Source of the DNA: Escherichia coli
GTDB lineage: Bacteria > Pseudomonadota > Gammaproteobacteria > Enterobacterales > Enterobacteriaceae
Direction: 5' to 3' (one strand)
NCBI RefSeq assembly: GCF_041886205.1
Contig: NZ_CP169029.1
Length of the DNA stretch: 64,000 nt
A program made the translations under genes and the position numbers. This document shows, one piece after another, positions 5,593-13,897 of the stretch; positions within the stretch are counted from its first letter, which is position 1, and each line of letters opens with the position of its first letter. Below the pieces are notes generated by a model that saw only the letters and a list, made by a program, of their open reading frames with translations, made no database searches and was not told where the DNA came from.

Positions 5593-5688
5593 TGTAGTGA
5601 TTTTGCACGCAGCACGTACTGTCAGAGAAATCAACTCTCTGACAGTACGCAAGATCATCTCATACTCTTACGATCTGCAATATTATCC

Positions 5689-7113
5689 TTAATGTTTAAC
5701 CATGACGTGGCGGACGACGGTGTAATCCTCCAGCCCATAAAGTGACATATCCTTGCCGTAACCAGAAAGTTTCTGCCCACCGTGCGGCATTTCACTTACC
5801 AGCATGAAATGGGTATTGACCCAGGTACAACCATATTGCAGCCGTGCGCTGACGCGATGCGCCCTGCCCACATCTTTAGTCCATACCGAAGATGCAAGTC
5901 CGTACTGGCTGTCATTCGCCCAGTTCACCACCTGTTCTTCGTTGTCGAAGAGCGTAACACTCACTACTGGACCAAATACCTCTTTTTGCACGATGGCATC
6001 GTCCTGTAATGCGCCAGCCAGCAGCGTCGGCGCATAGTAATAGCCATTACCCTTGCGCTTTTCACCGCCGGTGATCACTTTGATATGCCCTGTCGCTTTC
6101 GCCTCTTCTACCGCCTTGCTGACGCGTTCGAGATGCGCCAGCGAGCTTAAAGGTCCAAGCTCCGTAGACTCGTCATCCGGCGCACCCGATTTTAACGTTG
6201 CCACCGCAGCACCGAGTTTTTCCACCAGCGTATCGTAAATGCCTTTTTGCGCGTAGATCCGACAAGCCGCAGTACAATCCTGTCCGGCATTGTAATAGCC
6301 AAATGTACGTACACCTTCGACCACTGCTTCAATATCCGCATCATCAAAAACAATCACTGGCGCTTTGCCACCAAGTTCCATATGAGTACGCTTAATGGAG
6401 GGCGCGGTATGGCTGATGATGTGCTCGCCGGTGGCGATAGAGCCCGTCAGCGACACCATCCGCACTTTGGGATGACCGGTCAGCGGATCCCCCACCGTTT
6501 TGCCTCTGCCAAACAGTACGTTAATCACGCCTGCCGGGAAGATATCTTTCGCCAGCTCTGCCAACTTCAACGCGGTCAGCGGGGTAATTTCTGATGGTTT
6601 AAGCACTACGCAGTTCCCTGCCGCCAGCGCCGGAGCCAGTTTCCACGCTGCCATCATCAGCGGATAATTCCACGGTGCGATAGAAGCCACGACCCCCAAC
6701 GGATCGCGACGGATCATCGAAGTATGACCTTCAAGATATTCACCTGCCGCCAGACCATTCAGACAGCGCGCCGCACCCGCGAAAAAGCGAAAAACATCGA
6801 CAATCGCCGGGATTTCATCATTGAACGCACTATGCAGCGGTTTGCCACAATTACGGGACTCCAGTTCGGCAAAAACCTGACCATTTTCTTCGATAACATC
6901 AGCCAGTTTCAGCAGACATTCCGCACGCACTTTCGGCGTGGTTTGCCCCCATTCGGCAAATGCTGCATCTGCCGCGCGCACAGCAGCATCGACCTGCTCT
7001 GCGGATGCCTCGGCAATCTCCAGTAAAACGTCCCCCGTTGCCGGATTATAGACAGGCTGTTTTTCCCCTTCGCCGCTAACCAGTTCTCCGTTAATCAGTA
7101 ACTTATGTTGCAT
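5689..7113 (-). CDS. patD: Gamma-aminobutyraldehyde dehydrogenase PatD (YdcW/Prr), 474 aa
   Basis: ORF 5689..7113; aldehyde dehydrogenase family with catalytic Cys/Glu region. Confidence 0.9.
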
Positions 7114-7134
7114 AGCATATTCCTGTATCAGTGG

Positions 7135-7929
7135 TTATTGACCATTGTCGCCTTCGCGGGTTAGCCACCAGGCCCCCAGGATCGGCAAGGTTGTTACCAA
7201 CATAACCAGCAGTGCCACCACGTTAGTTACCGGTACATCACGCGGTCGCCCAAGCTGATTGAGCAACCACAACGGTAACGTTCGTTCATGACCTGCCGTA
7301 AAAGTCGTAACGATGATTTCATCGAACGACAAGGCAAACGCCAGCATTCCTCCTGCCAGTAGCGCCGAACTGAGATTCGGCAACACTACGTAGCGGAAGG
7401 TTTGCCAGCCATTGGCCCCAAGATCCATTGACGCCTCAACCAGACTCCACGAGGTGCGGCGAAAACGGGCGATGACATTGTTAAACACCACCACTACGCA
7501 AAAAGTCGCATGACCGACCACGATGGTGAAAAATCCCGGCTCCAGATTGATGGTTTTAAAAGCGGTTAATAGCGCCAGACCAGTGACAATGCCCGGCAGC
7601 GCAATGGGCAGCAGCAGTAACAGCGAAATGGCGTTTTTGCCGAAAAAGTCTCGTCGCCACAGCGCGGCAGCTGCCAGCGTCCCTAACACCAGCGCCATTA
7701 ATGTCGCCAGCGCCGCCACTTTAAGTGACAGTGTCACGGCATCAAGAATATCACTACGCTGTGCTGCCACGCTAAACCAGCGCAGCGTCAGGCCCTGCGG
7801 TGGAAAACTAAACGCCGCATCTTCAGTGTTAAACGCATAGGCGGCGATTATCAGGATGGGAAAATGTAGGAAAACAACGCCGCCCCAGGCCGCCAGTTTG
7901 AGGAAAAACGGTGCGCGATCAGAGTGCAT
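7135..7929 (-). CDS. ydcV: ABC transporter permease YdcV, 264 aa
   Basis: ORF 7135..7929; hydrophobic permease sequence; last gene of ydcSTUV. Confidence 0.9.
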
Positions 7930-8860
7930 CGAACGCTCCCAGACGTTTCACGAACGCCAGGTACAGTGCGATAAGAACAATCGGCACCAGGGTGAATGCC
8001 GCCGCCATCGGCATATTGCCAATCGCCCCCTGCTGGGAATAAACCATATTGCCGATAAAATATCCTGGCGGGCCAACCAGCTGCGGGACGATAAAATCGC
8101 CCAGTGTGAGTGAGAAGGTAAAGATAGAGCCAGCGGCAATACCCGGGATCGCCAGCGGCAGCACCACATAGCGAAAGGTTTGTCGTGGACGTGCGCCGAG
8201 ATCAGCCGACGCCTGCAACAATGACGGCGGCAAACGCTCAAGCGCCGCCTGCACGGGCAGGATCATGAACGGTAGCCAGATATAGAGAAACACCAGAAAG
8301 CGCCCCAGCCCGGAAGTTGACAGCGTATTGCCGCCCACCGCAGGTAATGTAAGGAACGCAGTCAGCAGTGGTTCCAGCCCAAGATGTTGTAAAAACCACT
8401 GAGCCACGCCATCTTTTGCCAGCAATAACGTCCAGGCATAGGCTTTAACAATGTAGCTCGCCCACATCGGCAACATTACCGCGATATAAAAAAACGCTTT
8501 CATTTTTCCGCTGGTATAGCGCGCCATATACCACGCCATTGGAAAAGCCAGAATGGCGCTGGCGATAGTGACTGCCACAGCCATGGTCAGCGTGCGGAGA
8601 ATGATGTCGTAATTCGCCGGATTAAACAGCGCACGGATATTCGCCAACGTCAGTTCCGGCGTTACCGACATGGTGAAATCGTCAAAGGTATAAAAGCCCT
8701 GCCATAACAGTGTTAGCAGCGAGCCGAAATAGACAATGCCAAACCACATTAGCGGGCCAAGCAGCAGCAAAAACAGCCCCCGCCCCGGATTACGCCAAAA
8801 GAAACCGGACACCTTACCCAGACCTGGACGTGAAGGTGATTGCAATACATTCATCGCCAT
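7919..8860 (-). CDS. ydcU: ABC transporter permease YdcU, 313 aa
   Basis: ORF 7919..8860; overlaps ydcV start by 11 nt. Confidence 0.9.
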
Positions 8861-9874
8861 TCACCTCTCCTCAACCAGCGGCACCATCACATCACGCGAC
8901 CAGGAAACCATCACCTGTTGTCCGGGCGTGAGCGTGGCAGGCAGTTCTTCGCCTGTCATATTGGCCTGACTCACAAGCAGTTTTTCACCGCCGTTCAATT
9001 TCAGTTCAAAACGAGTTGCCGCGCCCTGATATTGCACCGCCTGGATCGTGCCATTGGCCTGCAGTTCACCAGGGGTGTTGAGGCGGATATGTTCCGGTCG
9101 CAGGGCGAAGCTTCCCGTCATGCCACAAAGTTTCTCTGCCATCAGTCCATCAAAAACATTCGATGTACCAACGAACCCGGCAACAAACGGCGTGTGCGGG
9201 CGCATATAGAGATCGCGCGGGGAATCGACCTGCTCAATGCGTCCATTATTGAAAACCGCCACACGATCGGACATCGATAACGCTTCGCCCTGATCGTGGG
9301 TAACGAAGATAAAAGTGATACCGAGAGACTGTTGCAGTTTTTTCAGTTCCAGCTGCATCTGCTCACGCAATTTGAGATCCAGTGCGCCGAGCGGTTCATC
9401 CAACAGCAATACGCGCGGTTCATTCACCAATGCTCTGGCGATAGCAACCCGCTGGCGCTGACCACCAGAAAGTTGTGACGGTTTACGTTGCTGTACAAAC
9501 CCCAGCGCCACTTTCTCCAGCGCTTCTTGCGCCATTGCGTGCCGCTGCTTTTTATTCACGCCTTTGACCATCAGCCCATAGGCGACGTTGTCAAGAATCG
9601 ACATATGCGGAAACAGCGCATAGTCCTGGAAGACAGTATTCACGTCCCGCTCCCACGGTGGCAGATTGCTGGCGGGTTTACCAAAGATAGAGATAGCCCC
9701 GCCGGAAAGCTGTTCGAAGCCAGCAATCAGGCGCAGGCAGGTAGTTTTGCCGGAGCCGGACGGCCCCAGCATAGAGAAGAACTCACCATCTTTTATCGCA
9801 ATACTGACGCCATCTACTGCGCGCACGTCACCGTACAACCGCGAGACGTTGTCAAACTCCACTGCGTACGTCAT
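8861..9874 (-). CDS. ydcT: ABC transporter ATP-binding protein YdcT, 337 aa
   Basis: ORF 8861..9874; Walker A GPSGSGKTT and LSGGQRQR signature. Confidence 0.9.
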   Translation of the reverse strand: MTYAVEFDNVSRLYGDVRAVDGVSIAIKDGEFFSMLGPSGSGKTTCLRLIAGFEQLSGGAISIFGKPASNLPPWERDVNTVFQDYALFPHMSILDNVAYGLMVKGVNKKQRHAMAQEALEKVALGFVQQRKPSQLSGGQRQRVAIARALVNEPRVLLLDEPLGALDLKLREQMQLELKKLQQSLGITFIFVTHDQGEALSMSDRVAVFNNGRIEQVDSPRDLYMRPHTPFVAGFVGTSNVFDGLMAEKLCGMTGSFALRPEHIRLNTPGELQANGTIQAVQYQGAATRFELKLNGGEKLLVSQANMTGEELPATLTPGQQVMVSWSRDVMVPLVEER

Positions 9875-9891
9875 AAAGCACCCCAGCGAAG

Positions 9892-11037
9892 TTAGCGACC
9901 GCCCATAATGGCAATGTAATCCTGCGTCCAGCGACTGTAGGGAACAAACTTGCCCCCTTCTGCTATAGGCGTTTTCCAGAAGGCTATTTTATCGAAATAG
10001 TTAAAACCGTTTGTTTCACAACCTTTCTCGCCTAATAACGAACTGGCTTTACACCCTTCCGGCACGACGGGTAACGAGCCAAACCAGGCCGCCACATCGC
10101 CCTGCACTTTTGGCGTTAATGACCAGTTCATCCATTTGTAGGCGCAAACCGGATGTTTCGCTTCGCTATGCAGCATGGTGGTATCAGCCCAACCGGTAAC
10201 ACCCTCCTTCGGGAAAACGGTAGCAACAGGCTGGCCTTCGGCTTTCAGGGCGTTGGCCTGATAGGGCCAGGCACTGGAAGCAACCACACCCTCGTTTTTG
10301 AAATCGCTCATTTGCACGGTAGTGTCATGCCAGTAGCGATGGATCAAACTGTGTTGAGCGCGCAGCACTTTCAGCACCGCCTGGTACTGTTCTTCGGTGA
10401 GTTGATACGGATCGCTGATGCCCAACTGCGGCTGAGTGGCTTTAACGAACAACGCAGCGTCCGCAATATAGATCGGGCCATCATAAGCCTGAACGCGGCC
10501 TTTATTGCTCTTGCCGTCCGGCAGATTTTGCTCAACAAAAACCACTTGCCAGCTATCCGGCGGCGTCGGGAAGGTTTTAGTGTTGTACATCAGCAGATTC
10601 GGCCCCCACTGGTATGGTGTGCCGTAAACTTTGCCGCCAACATTGAACCAGTCGCCTTTAACCACGCGGGGATCGAGCGTTTTCCAGTTGGGGATCAATG
10701 CGGTATTAATCGGCTGCACGCGTTTACCCATAATCAGGCGCAGCGAGGCATCGCCGGATGCAGTAACCAGATCGTAACCCCCTTTGGTCATCAGACTGAC
10801 CATTTCATCGGAAGTCGCGGCGGTTTTCACATTCACCGCGCAGCCTGTCTCTTTTTCGAATTGCGTTACCCAGTCGTATTGTTTATCAGTTTGTCCGCGT
10901 TCGATATATCCCGGCCAGGCGATAATATCCAGTCGCCCTTCCGGTTTATCTAAATTGGTAGGCGGTTCGGCGGCGTGAGCGGTCATTATTGTCATGCTGA
11001 GCGCACACAGGCTGCTGCGGGCAAATGTCTTGCTCAT
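9892..11037 (-). CDS. ydcS: Periplasmic substrate-binding protein YdcS (polyamine-binding family), 381 aa
   Basis: ORF 9892..11037; N-terminal signal peptide. Confidence 0.9.
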   Translation of the reverse strand: MSKTFARSSLCALSMTIMTAHAAEPPTNLDKPEGRLDIIAWPGYIERGQTDKQYDWVTQFEKETGCAVNVKTAATSDEMVSLMTKGGYDLVTASGDASLRLIMGKRVQPINTALIPNWKTLDPRVVKGDWFNVGGKVYGTPYQWGPNLLMYNTKTFPTPPDSWQVVFVEQNLPDGKSNKGRVQAYDGPIYIADAALFVKATQPQLGISDPYQLTEEQYQAVLKVLRAQHSLIHRYWHDTTVQMSDFKNEGVVASSAWPYQANALKAEGQPVATVFPKEGVTGWADTTMLHSEAKHPVCAYKWMNWSLTPKVQGDVAAWFGSLPVVPEGCKASSLLGEKGCETNGFNYFDKIAFWKTPIAEGGKFVPYSRWTQDYIAIMGGR

Positions 11038-11281
11038 AAAGTCTTACTCCTGTCGTAATTAATTGTTCAGCCGCCGTGCCGTAAAAATATCTCCTTGTTT
11101 AACCATAGACGGCGGCTTGCAGGCACACCTTCGCCCCTGAGAAAATTTAATCAGGTTGTGAGCTACCGCGCATTATGCCGTCTGTAAGGTTATCTTCTGG
11201 AGTATAGACAAGGAGTTAGGAAATATGACTGCTATTCGAAATTCATATTACCCAATCTAAGAGGAATTAAATTAAACGCTA

Positions 11282-12688
11282 TTACAGCCGTTCTTGAATA
11301 AGTTTGCCTAATTGTTTTACCGCCTGTTCTTCACGTTCTCCCCACTGCCACGCGGTATTAAAACGAAAAAAACGTGACCAGTTTTCACCGGTAGAAAACA
11401 TTTTACCCGGCGCAATACTGATATGATGCGTCAGTGCCGCCAGGCTTAATTCGTCGGCATCTAACGGCTCGGGGAGCTCCAGCCAGAGAAAATAACCGCT
11501 GTCATTATGATGAATTTTAACTTCCGCAGGCAGATAACGCAGCAGTGCCTGCCAGGCACGTTGTTTACGTTCCGCAAGCTGGCGACGCAGGCGACGAAGA
11601 TGGGCGTCGTATCGGCGCGTGGAAAGGTAATCCACCAGCGCAAGCTGCATCGGTGAGCTGGTGGAAAGCGTACTCATCAACTGCAAGCGTTGAATTTTAC
11701 GTGCATGTTTTCCGGCGGCGACCCAACCAATACGAAAACCAGGCACCAGACATTTCGAAAACGAAGAGCAATGCAAAACGCCATCGTGGCGATCCCACGC
11801 TTTCGCAGGCAGCGGTTTTTCCCGTCCAAAATAAAGTTCGCTGTAAACGTCATCTTCAATCAGCGTTACGTTGTACTGATTGAGCAACGCCACCAGTTGT
11901 GCTTTTTTTTGCGGCGTTAAGGTAAATCCGAGTGGATTCTGGCTATTAGTCATCAGCCAGCACGCTTTCACCGGATACTCCTGCAACGCCAGTTCCAACG
12001 CCTGAAGATCGATCCCTTCTTTAACATCCGTCGCCACCGATAACGCCTTCAGCCGTAGCCGCTCCAGCGCCTGCAACGCACCGTAGAAACAAGGATTCTC
12101 TACTATCACCCAATCGCCCGGTTCAGTTACCGCTTGCAAACTGAGGTTTAATGCCTCTAACGCCCCGGCAGTAATGACAATTTCATCAGGAGAAATGGTG
12201 ATGCCCTGTAAGGCATAGCGACGAGCAATAGCCTGACGCAGTTCTGCGTTTCCTGGCGGTAAGTTTTCAATCACGCTCATCGCCGTGGCGGTTTTGCTTA
12301 CCTGCGCCAGCGAGCGGTTTAGTTGTTGTAGGGGGAAAAGTCGCGGGTCGGGAAAGGCCGAGGCAAACGGAACTACCGACGGATCGCGACTGGCCTGCAA
12401 CATATCAAAAATATAAGTGTTGATATCGACTGCTTCATCTCGAGTGACTGGAATGACTGGCGCTTTCGGCATTTTTATTGCCTGTGGCGCAACGTAATAA
12501 CCTGACTGCGGTCGTGCGATAATATATCCCTGACTTTCGAGCAACTGATAGGCATGGCTGACAGTCATAAAGCTCATGCCAGAAAGCGCCACCTGGTCAC
12601 GCAACGAAGGCAAACGATCGCCGGGTTGCCAGATACCCGACGCAATCTGCTCGCGTAATTGTTCTGCAAGCTGCTGGTATTTTTTCAT
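11282..12688 (-). CDS. ydcR: MocR-family regulator YdcR (HTH fused to aminotransferase-like domain), 468 aa
   Basis: ORF 11282..12688; N-terminal GntR-type HTH, C-terminal PLP-fold domain. Confidence 0.9.
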   Translation of the reverse strand: MKKYQQLAEQLREQIASGIWQPGDRLPSLRDQVALSGMSFMTVSHAYQLLESQGYIIARPQSGYYVAPQAIKMPKAPVIPVTRDEAVDINTYIFDMLQASRDPSVVPFASAFPDPRLFPLQQLNRSLAQVSKTATAMSVIENLPPGNAELRQAIARRYALQGITISPDEIVITAGALEALNLSLQAVTEPGDWVIVENPCFYGALQALERLRLKALSVATDVKEGIDLQALELALQEYPVKACWLMTNSQNPLGFTLTPQKKAQLVALLNQYNVTLIEDDVYSELYFGREKPLPAKAWDRHDGVLHCSSFSKCLVPGFRIGWVAAGKHARKIQRLQLMSTLSTSSPMQLALVDYLSTRRYDAHLRRLRRQLAERKQRAWQALLRYLPAEVKIHHNDSGYFLWLELPEPLDADELSLAALTHHISIAPGKMFSTGENWSRFFRFNTAWQWGEREEQAVKQLGKLIQERL

Positions 12689-12766
12689 TATCGAATCGTA
12701 ATTATGTGCAGATGATTCGGCAGTCTATATCAGTTGTTAAAAATGACAACTTTTCGTTAACTGTAA

Positions 12767-13183
<417 letters not shown>

Positions 13184-13228
13184 AATTTCGACTGTCTCTC
13201 GCATGTCATTAACCTTTTTAATTGGCGA

Positions 13229-13405
13229 TTAACTCAAACCGAGTTGTTTCAGAATTGCTTTACGCAATGGTTCTTTAATCTCATCGCTAGGGTGACACGG
13301 CATGACACTGCGCCTCCCGTGAAACCTGAGTTTTAAATGGTTGCTGCCATTCGCTACATCGACGCCCTGAGATTCGAGCCAACGTCTGAACTCGCTTTGT
13401 TTCAC
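13229..13405 (-). CDS. hicA: mRNA-interferase toxin HicA, 58 aa, GTG start
   Basis: Manual translation of minus strand: (V)KQSEFRRWLESQGVDVANGSNHLKLRFHGRRSVMPCHPSDEIKEPLRKAILKQLGLS; directly upstream of hicB. Confidence 0.8.
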   Translation of the reverse strand: MKQSEFRRWLESQGVDVANGSNHLKLRFHGRRSVMPCHPSDEIKEPLRKAILKQLGLS

Positions 13406-13437
13406 ATCGCCTCCCTGCCGCTGAGTATATCAACAAA

Positions 13438-13857: not shown

Positions 13858-13867
13858 GTCATTTATT

Positions 13868-13897
13868 GCCGGATGCGGCGTGACGCCTTACCCGGCC
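13868..13897. repeat. REP (repetitive extragenic palindromic) element
   Basis: GCCGGATGCGGCGTGACGCCTTACCCGGCC matches REP consensus; between convergent yncJ and ydcP. Confidence 0.7.

Follow-up and report, generated by a model that had tools for sequence, protein, structure and literature searches.

ydcR is probably a neighbour, not the cognate regulator, of the ydcSTUV-patD importer and aminoaldehyde dehydrogenase unit of Escherichia coli

The window analyzed here is a 64,000-nucleotide stretch of Escherichia coli DNA (contig NZ_CP169029.1), in which positions 5689-12688 carry six genes, all on the minus strand according to the open reading frame (ORF) listing. The first in the direction of transcription is ydcR (11282-12688, 468 amino acids (aa)), which the ORF list, Pfam and RefSeq identify as a MocR-type transcription factor with a GntR winged helix-turn-helix and a fold-type-I aminotransferase-like domain, and which by published work binds pyridoxal 5'-phosphate (PLP). 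The components of an ATP-binding cassette (ABC) importer follow: ydcS (9892-11037, 381 aa), encoding a periplasmic substrate-binding protein of the PotD/PotF-class fold that forms a family of its own; ydcT (8861-9874, 337 aa), an ABC ATPase with a C-terminal TOBE_2 domain; ydcU (7919-8860, 313 aa), a PotB/PotH-like permease whose start abuts the ydcT stop; and ydcV (7135-7929, 264 aa), a PotC/PotI-like permease overlapping ydcU by 11 nt. The last gene, patD (ydcW; 5689-7113, 474 aa), encodes a cytoplasmic, NAD-dependent gamma-aminobutyraldehyde dehydrogenase. The gaps are 244 bp between ydcR and ydcS, 17 bp between ydcS and ydcT, 0 bp between ydcT and ydcU, and 21 bp between ydcV and patD. The same genes, with the same order, spacings and products and no structural difference, are found in E. 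coli K-12 (ydcR (b1439), ydcSTUV and patD/ydcW in RefSeq/EcoCyc), and the hicAB insertion upstream of ydcR is common to both strains. At least 80% of the region was found in 5398 of 5426 complete E. coli genomes, and 5416 E. coli records match it at 95-100% identity. Strain wlxctx60 is 100% identical over 5689-12688, and RefSeq names the same six genes there. At least 99% identity over the 7-kb region was reached by just 21 of the 5416 matching records, the others lying in the 95-99% band, so the window belongs to an E. coli lineage that has been sequenced less often; the best-matching record is an isolate taken from the faeces of an Asian black bear.

Domain content agrees with these assignments. 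Pfam places GntR (PF00392) at residues 3-66 of YdcR and Aminotran_1_2 (PF00155) at residues 141-445, an N-terminal GntR winged helix followed by a C-terminal fold-type-I aminotransferase-like domain that makes it a member of the MocR family, and the protein matches the GabR and PdxR structures over its full length. YdcS is covered by SBP_bac_8/1, YdcT by ABC_tran and TOBE_2 (nearest to the PotA model, at 359 bits against a cut-off of 482), and YdcU and YdcV by one BPD_transp_1 domain each, which gives the four components of an importer: a binding protein, an ATPase and two permeases. PatD belongs to Aldedh and scores 1037.8 bits against the cut-off of 909.3 for TIGR03374, the aminobutyraldehyde dehydrogenase (ABALDH) equivalog; it matches PDB 1WNB/1WND with 1063 bits over residues 1-474, shows the catalytic motifs ELGGK and QDCTA in the alignment and is 84% identical to Salmonella PatD. 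Solved structures exist for YdcS (6NLP, differing at 1 residue) and for PatD itself (1WNB/1WND). This is an ordinary, named E. coli region with largely characterized genes.

The packing of ydcSTUV-patD was compared across 80 loci with YdcS relatives (one genome per species), to which contigs carrying single orthologues were added. The order ydcS-ydcT-ydcU-ydcV-patD was preserved throughout the 80 loci, the ydcU/ydcV overlap was -11 nt in every one, the ydcT-ydcU gap was 0 or 1 nt in 66, and the median gaps were 17 nt between ydcS and ydcT and 24 nt between ydcV and patD. Such conservation of gene order, overlap and gaps is the signature of a co-translated operon, and the tight packing does not reflect chance: ydcSTUV-patD is a genuine, conserved unit of a transporter and an aminoaldehyde dehydrogenase. 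An earlier note on this DNA had read it in the same way, as a tightly packed uptake and aminoaldehyde dehydrogenase unit related to polyamine or gamma-aminobutyrate (GABA) metabolism, with a transported substrate not obvious from sequence. Our analysis bears this out, as it does every spacing and gene identity given there, but on a textbook E. coli locus the finding as written adds nothing new. The same note had also proposed ydcR as the regulator of ydcSTUV-patD, and this part does not hold up, on grounds developed below, among them the position of the operator, a published gel-shift control, and the separation of ydcR from the operon in both directions.

A phylogenetic footprint of 42 Enterobacteriaceae loci, taken over the aligned 160 nt that precede ydcR, revealed ATAACAGTT, followed after about 27 nt by CTGATATA, the two forming an inverted repeat. 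Together with half-site statistics and a promoter scan, it points to a probable YdcR operator over the ydcR promoter at 12722-12767 (minus strand). Box 1 is ATTACAGTT (12767-12759, minus strand; consensus ATAACAGTT) and box 2 is CTGATATA (12733-12726, minus strand), and the boxes straddle a promoter-like TTGTCA-16-TAGACT found by the scan at 12749-12722. Box 1 is overlapped by the stop codon of hicB, and its E. coli form is degenerate, with ATTACAG for ATAACAG. The half-site, taken as CTG[AT]TA[TC], was counted in the 120 nt upstream of ydcR, upstream of ydcS and in background sequence. Its density was 14.9/kb upstream of ydcR compared to 0.6/kb upstream of ydcS and 0.72/kb in background, and two or more half-sites preceded ydcR in 31 of 42 loci and ydcS in none of the 42. 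The half-site search likewise gave no YdcR half-site in the 244-bp ydcR-ydcS spacer of the window. The operator is also retained in Salmonella, K. oxytoca and Shimwellia. YdcR thus has a repeat-type operator at its own promoter, a feature expected of MocR-type regulators.

Published biochemistry fits this placement. YdcR was found to bind PLP by intact-protein mass spectrometry and probe labelling, and it shifted a 189-bp fragment spanning the end of hicB and the start of ydcR from 50 nM (Pfanzelt et al., PMC9321722); the predicted operator falls within this fragment. The main text of that paper calls the bound fragment "upstream of a putrescine transporter," a description that favors YdcR as a dedicated regulator of ydcSTUV-patD, which would sense GABA or a putrescine-type amine through its PLP domain in the manner of GabR and switch the operon on or off. 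The negative control of the same gel-shift, which is the only one published for YdcR, was nevertheless the exact 244-bp ydcR-ydcS spacer (PMC9321722), and this argues against such a role, as do the half-site counts.

The spacer itself (11038-11281, minus strand) would hold the control region of the operon. Strong conservation marks the 180 nt before ydcS in the alignment of 42 ydcR-type loci, and this stretch contains, all on the minus strand, a putative sigma-S-like -10 element TGTCTATACT (11210-11201), assigned by eye or from the literature; Block I, AATGCGC-N6-TCACAACCTG-N4-AAATTT (11174-11142), whose right half is a perfect TCACA CRP half-site; Block II, CGCCGTCTA..TTTA..GGAGATATTTTTACGGCA.GGCTGCCGC (11114-11068); and the Shine-Dalgarno sequence GACAGGAGTAA (11053-11043). 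Control of the operon by RpoS, CRP and Nac has been reported in the literature. In Salmonella, Block I and the first part of Block II have been retained immediately before patD, and we read the two blocks as the promoter region because they were left in front of patD when ydcSTUV was deleted. The deletion, seen in Salmonella enterica (L088, 8001-10985), is clean and runs from inside Block II to the end of ydcV. A regulatory RNA in the ydcS leader was considered and rejected, since RNAalifold on 18 sequences gave just a 4-pair hairpin with no covariation; Rfam had no match in the region at E<=1. In the absence of a conserved RNA structure or an Rfam match, the blocks are read as DNA signals. 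A sigma-54 promoter in Block II was also discarded, the GG/GC spacing being unfitting by eye.

The distribution of ydcR separates it from the operon. In 41 of the 80 loci ydcS follows a ydcR gene (63-95% identical). All of these are Enterobacteriaceae, from genera that include Escherichia, Citrobacter, Enterobacter, Kluyvera, Kosakonia, Lelliottia, Phytobacter, Pluralibacter, Leclercia, Cedecea, Dryocola and Mangrovibacter. Another 36 loci, which belong to Serratia, Hafnia, Rahnella, Lonsdalea, Acerihabitans and many Pseudomonas, lack ydcR; before ydcS they carry genes for a LysR-type protein and for a second aldehyde dehydrogenase, both proteins being 73-96% identical across orders. The remaining three (two Buttiauxella and P. 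resinovorans) have neither regulator. That the same transporter-patD core occurs with a LysR regulator in 36 loci speaks against YdcR as its dedicated regulator, and when ydcR-type and LysR-type loci were compared for homology, their sequences before ydcS were not alignable. The converse separation is seen in Shimwellia blattae, where ydcR is present without transporter or patD, and in Salmonella, where ydcR is followed after 114 bp by patD and ydcSTUV is missing. The Salmonella arrangement can be turned either way: the proximity of ydcR to patD would suit a regulator of the operon, whereas the retention of ydcR without the transporter, in this genus as in Shimwellia, argues against one.

Within the ydcR class the ydcR-ydcS spacer varies from 157 to 421 bp, and in Dryocola, Cedecea and one Enterobacter 1.2-3.3 kb of unrelated genes lie between the two, with the ydcS promoter Blocks I and II surviving the insertions. 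Foreign genes at this position are a further argument against a dedicated regulator. The Dryocola insertion comprises an AraC-type regulator, a TOBE-domain protein and a glyoxalase-family protein. Genes for TOBE-domain and glyoxalase-family proteins stand divergently upstream of ydcS in both Dryocola (L044, 8029-9695) and Buttiauxella (L047, 8828-9699), ydcR being displaced in the former and absent in the latter. Equal ORF sizes and position suggest that the two genera carry the same pair, the Dryocola proteins being those that were scanned. Taken together, an operator at the ydcS promoter and inheritance along with the operon, which would be expected of a dedicated regulator, are both lacking for ydcR.

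Several points weigh against separating ydcR from the operon. The same-strand adjacency of ydcR and ydcS has been kept in 41 Enterobacteriaceae loci and in K. oxytoca, a pattern that a recruited regulator would fit too. A terminator scan found no terminator-like hairpin between ydcR and ydcS, so read-through from the autoregulated ydcR promoter could couple ydcR to ydcS. The negative gel-shift comes from one control lane, run in vitro with the protein tagged. As to the promoter, the sigma-S, CRP and Nac assignments were made by eye or taken from the literature. The first two of these points also favor YdcR as the operon's regulator, a role that we nonetheless consider improbable. We conclude that ydcR is probably a neighbor and not the cognate regulator of ydcSTUV-patD, and favor with moderate confidence the combined reading in which ydcSTUV-patD would form a single transcription unit served by a promoter region of its own in the 244-bp spacer, and ydcR would be a separate, autoregulated MocR-type factor of the YdcR/MpaR group.

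Comparison with characterized MocR proteins supports the second half of this reading. YdcR has been placed in the largest MocR orthologous group, which includes PA4132 (Suvorova and Rodionov 2016, PMC5320631). For this group the predicted targets comprise ylaC (E. coli, Salmonella and Erwinia), genes of cytochrome bd-type (cydAB-like) oxidases (many gamma-proteobacteria), and ccoN and NapH-like genes (Pseudomonas); ydcS is not listed in the published regulon (PMC5320631). PA4132 is MpaR, a cyanide-responsive activator of ccoN4 that requires an ATCTGAT motif (PMC10790758), and Salmonella YdcR is reported to activate srfN directly. The ylaC upstream region of the E. coli strain analyzed here contains cgcAACTGTTATgcaaaattgtggtaaatCTGTTAC, with the layout AACTGTTAT-N17-CTGTTAC, and its first box, AACTGTTAT, is the exact reverse complement of operator box 1. 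The nearest non-enterobacterial relative of YdcR (55% identical) is encoded divergently from a cytochrome bd oxidase operon, and another (49% identical) precedes a FixG/CcoG-like gene; this proximity of relatives to terminal oxidase genes also runs counter to a role of YdcR in regulating the operon. In other bacteria, genes of cyanide-insensitive or cbb3-type oxidases adjoin members of the group. E. coli YdcR shares with the MpaR/YdcR group the MocR architecture, the published group membership and an operator core with CTGAT. It differs in its predicted target, ylaC (srfN in Salmonella), and in that no terminal-oxidase gene (cioAB, ccoN4 or ccoG-like) adjoins it in the window, where its neighbors are hicAB and ydcS.

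GabR of Bacillus subtilis, as a GABA regulator of the MocR family, is the precedent for an amine-sensing YdcR, and the two share domain architecture and PLP binding. GabR, however, is divergent from its gabTD target and binds the shared intergenic region, whereas YdcR has no operator before ydcS and matches GabR with 126 bits against a cut-off of 600, a weak match that tells against the analogy. YdcR would best be described as a MocR-type factor that binds PLP, regulates its own gene and belongs to the YdcR/MpaR orthologous group. It would recognize the inverted repeat at its own promoter, probably also the promoter of ylaC, and exert no direct control on ydcSTUV-patD.

The LysR-type loci place the operon in a wider context. 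Their order is LysR regulator, second ABALDH paralogue, ydcSTUV and patD, with YdcS identities of 75-86% in Serratia, Hafnia, Rahnella, Lonsdalea and many Pseudomonas; this context was also read in P. nitroreducens, Serratia and Lonsdalea contigs. The paralogue upstream of ydcS shares 62% identity with PatD and scores 785 bits against the aminobutyraldehyde dehydrogenase subfamily cut-off of 615. A gene for a 620-636-aa flavoprotein, identified as spermidine dehydrogenase SpdH (820 bits to PDB 7D9F), follows patD in each of the six Serratia loci scanned, in two S. marcescens contigs (L005 and L006), in Hafnia alvei and in several Pseudomonas. The enzyme converts spermidine to 1,3-diaminopropane and 4-aminobutanal/1-pyrroline, and spermine to spermidine and 3-aminopropanal, and cytochrome c is usable as its acceptor (PMC12564564, PMC9397018). 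The twin-arginine motif M.ITRRDFLNG opens ten of 11 SpdH copies, and the eleventh shows it where its annotation starts. A cytochrome c gene overlaps spdH by 4 nt in Serratia and Hafnia alvei, the two being translationally coupled, and its product has a Sec-type signal peptide and three CXXCH motifs. The pair of spdH and the trihaem cytochrome c gene directly after patD lies, for instance, at 14525-17616 of L005 (Serratia marcescens), and is also seen in L042, L048, L050-L053 and L079. Because of the twin-arginine motif and the cytochrome c partner, SpdH is predicted to be exported. We found no paper in the searchable literature that describes the spdH-cytochrome c pair or its link to ydcSTUV, and a literature search gave none linking PA3713 to the twin-arginine translocation (Tat) pathway; within the searchable literature, the link of ydcSTUV-patD to an exported spermidine dehydrogenase is previously undescribed.

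The E. coli locus is a trimmed version of this wider module. It shares with the LysR-ABALDH-ydcSTUV-patD(-spdH-cytochrome c) clusters the orthologous core and the 11-nt ydcU/ydcV overlap, but the window has no LysR gene or second ABALDH gene upstream and no spdH or cytochrome c gene by patD, and E. coli has instead ydcR upstream and a family-specific promoter region. In bacteria with SpdH, polyamines would be oxidized outside the cytoplasm, and the importer, with two cytoplasmic aminoaldehyde dehydrogenases, may take up one of the products. More generally, an importer of the PotD/PotF class, made up of the binding protein YdcS, the ATPase YdcT and the permeases YdcU/YdcV, would bring in a small polyamine-derived amine whose aldehyde would be oxidized, by PatD in the cytoplasm, to GABA or beta-alanine, a nitrogen or carbon source in starvation.

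The closest known importers of this class are PotFGHI and PotABCD (TC 3.A.1.11), which share with YdcSTUV a TOBE-domain ATPase, two BPD_transp_1 permeases and a binding protein of like fold. One proposal is accordingly that YdcSTUV is a third putrescine/spermidine importer of this kind, PatA transaminating the diamine and PatD finishing the conversion to GABA. All four components are most similar to Pot proteins, and among solved structures other than its own, 6NLP, YdcS is closest to SpuE, PotF and PotD. The scores of YdcS point the other way: it reaches 814.5 bits in its own NCBIfam equivalog (cut-off 725), but 62.1 bits for PotF against a cut-off of 636 and 46.3 bits for PotD against 582, about ten-fold below both of these curated cut-offs. 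YdcS also differs from PotF and PotD by a 7-residue insertion after the AWPGY motif and by a Cys-rich C-terminal extension.

The ligand pocket of YdcS was mapped by profile-profile alignment of its family with E. coli PotF (probability 98.7%) and independently by a HMMER alignment with PotF structures. In PotF, the acidic contact residues D39, E185, D247 and D278 hold both polyamine amino groups. By the two alignments, PotF W37, Y40, S85, W244 and D278 are kept as YdcS W41, Y44, S94, W257 and D285, and F276 remains aromatic as W283. PotF S38 is changed to P42; the acidic residues D39 and E185 are replaced by G43 and Y190; D247 falls in a gap; and an Asp is gained at D96 in place of PotF S87. 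The pocket residues are invariant in 13 family members from E. coli to Pseudomonas, except Y190, which is a consensus only. Of the acidic anchors, the equivalent of D278 alone is kept. As far as these alignments tell, YdcS retains the aromatic box and one anionic site of a PotF-type protein, with one conserved Asp, but the second anionic site expected in a diamine binder is gone. The equivalents of PotD D168 and E171 are presumably absent as well. Because the second anionic site is lost and the family scores are ten-fold below the cut-offs, YdcS does not appear to be a PotF-style putrescine binder, and the substrate is probably not putrescine bound in the PotF manner.

The operon context bears on the same question. 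The presence of patD in the operon, a feature that sets it apart from the Pot operons, would serve an importer of putrescine feeding PatD, and the reported control by Nac, as for other nitrogen-scavenging genes, would suit one too. The conserved core of the LysR-type module, however, holds two aldehyde dehydrogenases and never an aminotransferase or oxidase, and Salmonella retained patD while deleting the transporter, both of which count against an importer whose substrate must first be transaminated. Reviews that name YdcSTUV as a putrescine importer cite databases, and we found no transport or binding data in the literature. We regard a third Pot-like importer as a tentative possibility. Our preferred substrate, also tentative, is an aminoaldehyde or 1-pyrroline (4-aminobutanal, perhaps 3-aminopropanal). 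Putrescine itself is unlikely, to the same degree as 1,3-diaminopropane or another short diamine, and the chances of spermidine or another polyamine, and of some other compound, are lower still.

If the preferred substrate is correct, aminoaldehydes would be made outside the cytoplasm by exported SpdH in Serratia, Hafnia and some Pseudomonas, and in E. coli, without SpdH, they may come from amine oxidases of the host or of neighboring microbes in the gut; PatD and its paralogue would detoxify the imported aminoaldehydes and harvest GABA and beta-alanine. We found no paper on an aminoaldehyde-binding ABC protein in the searchable literature. The fuller proposal, in which YdcSTUV is a high-affinity aminoaldehyde importer rather than a polyamine importer and YdcR the enterobacterial counterpart of MpaR, unrelated to polyamines, is rather unlikely to hold in both its parts. 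Further observations have to be set on the other side of the balance. SpdH adjoins the module in a subset only (the Serratia loci, one of two Hafnia and a few Pseudomonas), and no spdH is detectable in E. coli at the DNA level, as blastn gave no match in 5426 genomes, although a very divergent copy would escape. The pocket comparison is made from alignments at about 20-30% identity, and YdcS D96 could bind a second amine. Finally, PatA is encoded elsewhere in E. coli, so that imported putrescine could feed PatD without any import of aldehyde, and the reviews listing a putrescine importer have to be counted here too.

Quite different functions have been proposed for YdcS, as a periplasmic polymerase of short-chain poly-3-hydroxybutyrate (cPHB) and, together with YdcV, as part of a route for double-stranded DNA uptake in natural transformation on plates. 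A ydcS mutant is reported to have about 30% less outer-membrane cPHB (PMC3709699), and ydcS and ydcV mutants transform 6.7- and 9.5-fold less (PMC6135910), but the effect of a ydcT mutant on transformation was small (PMC6135910), and the phenotypes are modest and possibly indirect. YdcS has a type II solute-binding fold (SBP_bac_8/1; 6NLP was deposited as a solute-binding protein) and not that of an alpha/beta hydrolase, and it is set in an invariant operon of ABC importer and aldehyde dehydrogenase across Enterobacterales and Pseudomonas. Both are unlikely as primary functions of YdcS, and we give this explanation of the locus very little credence.

On the downstream side of the locus, a perfect 11-bp inverted repeat, TACTGTCAGAG / CTCTGACAGTA, with a 9-nt loop lies at 5617-5647, where patD and the small-protein gene yncL end convergently. 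Neither strand shows a U-tract there, and the terminator scan did not call the repeat; judged from its sequence, it is a possible two-way transcript end. Upstream of ydcR, the toxin-antitoxin pair hicAB is encoded on the minus strand by hicB (12767-13204) and hicA (about 13229-13405). The pair (12767-13430) is an insertion between yncJ and ydcR found in some Escherichia and Citrobacter loci only, and in E. albertii yncJ and ydcR are direct divergent neighbors. The stretch from rlhA/yncJ to ydcR is a variable hot spot (L009-L016, L036, L030 and others): it measures about 150 bp in Phytobacter and Pluralibacter, and at the other extreme Citrobacter has about 3 kb of additional genes there. A sub-threshold Rfam match to naRNA4, a nucleoid-associated RNA derived from repetitive extragenic palindromic (REP) elements, lies at 13858-13897 on the minus strand between yncJ and rlhA (30.9 bits against a gathering threshold of 59.5) and is probably a REP element.

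In databases and papers YdcR still figures as the probable regulator of a "putrescine transporter," a view against which the comparative evidence and the published gel-shift both speak; they place YdcR with the MpaR-type, respiration-linked regulator group. The loss of ydcSTUV in Salmonella, with the promoter and patD kept, amounts to a natural experiment that separates the two functions. The substrate of YdcSTUV has been a question of the y-ome for more than 20 years, and the links of the module together with the altered pocket of YdcS give a short, testable list of ligands. If YdcSTUV is indeed an ABC importer of aminoaldehydes or 1-pyrroline, this would be a new transporter specificity and would explain how gut bacteria use the toxic products of polyamine oxidation.

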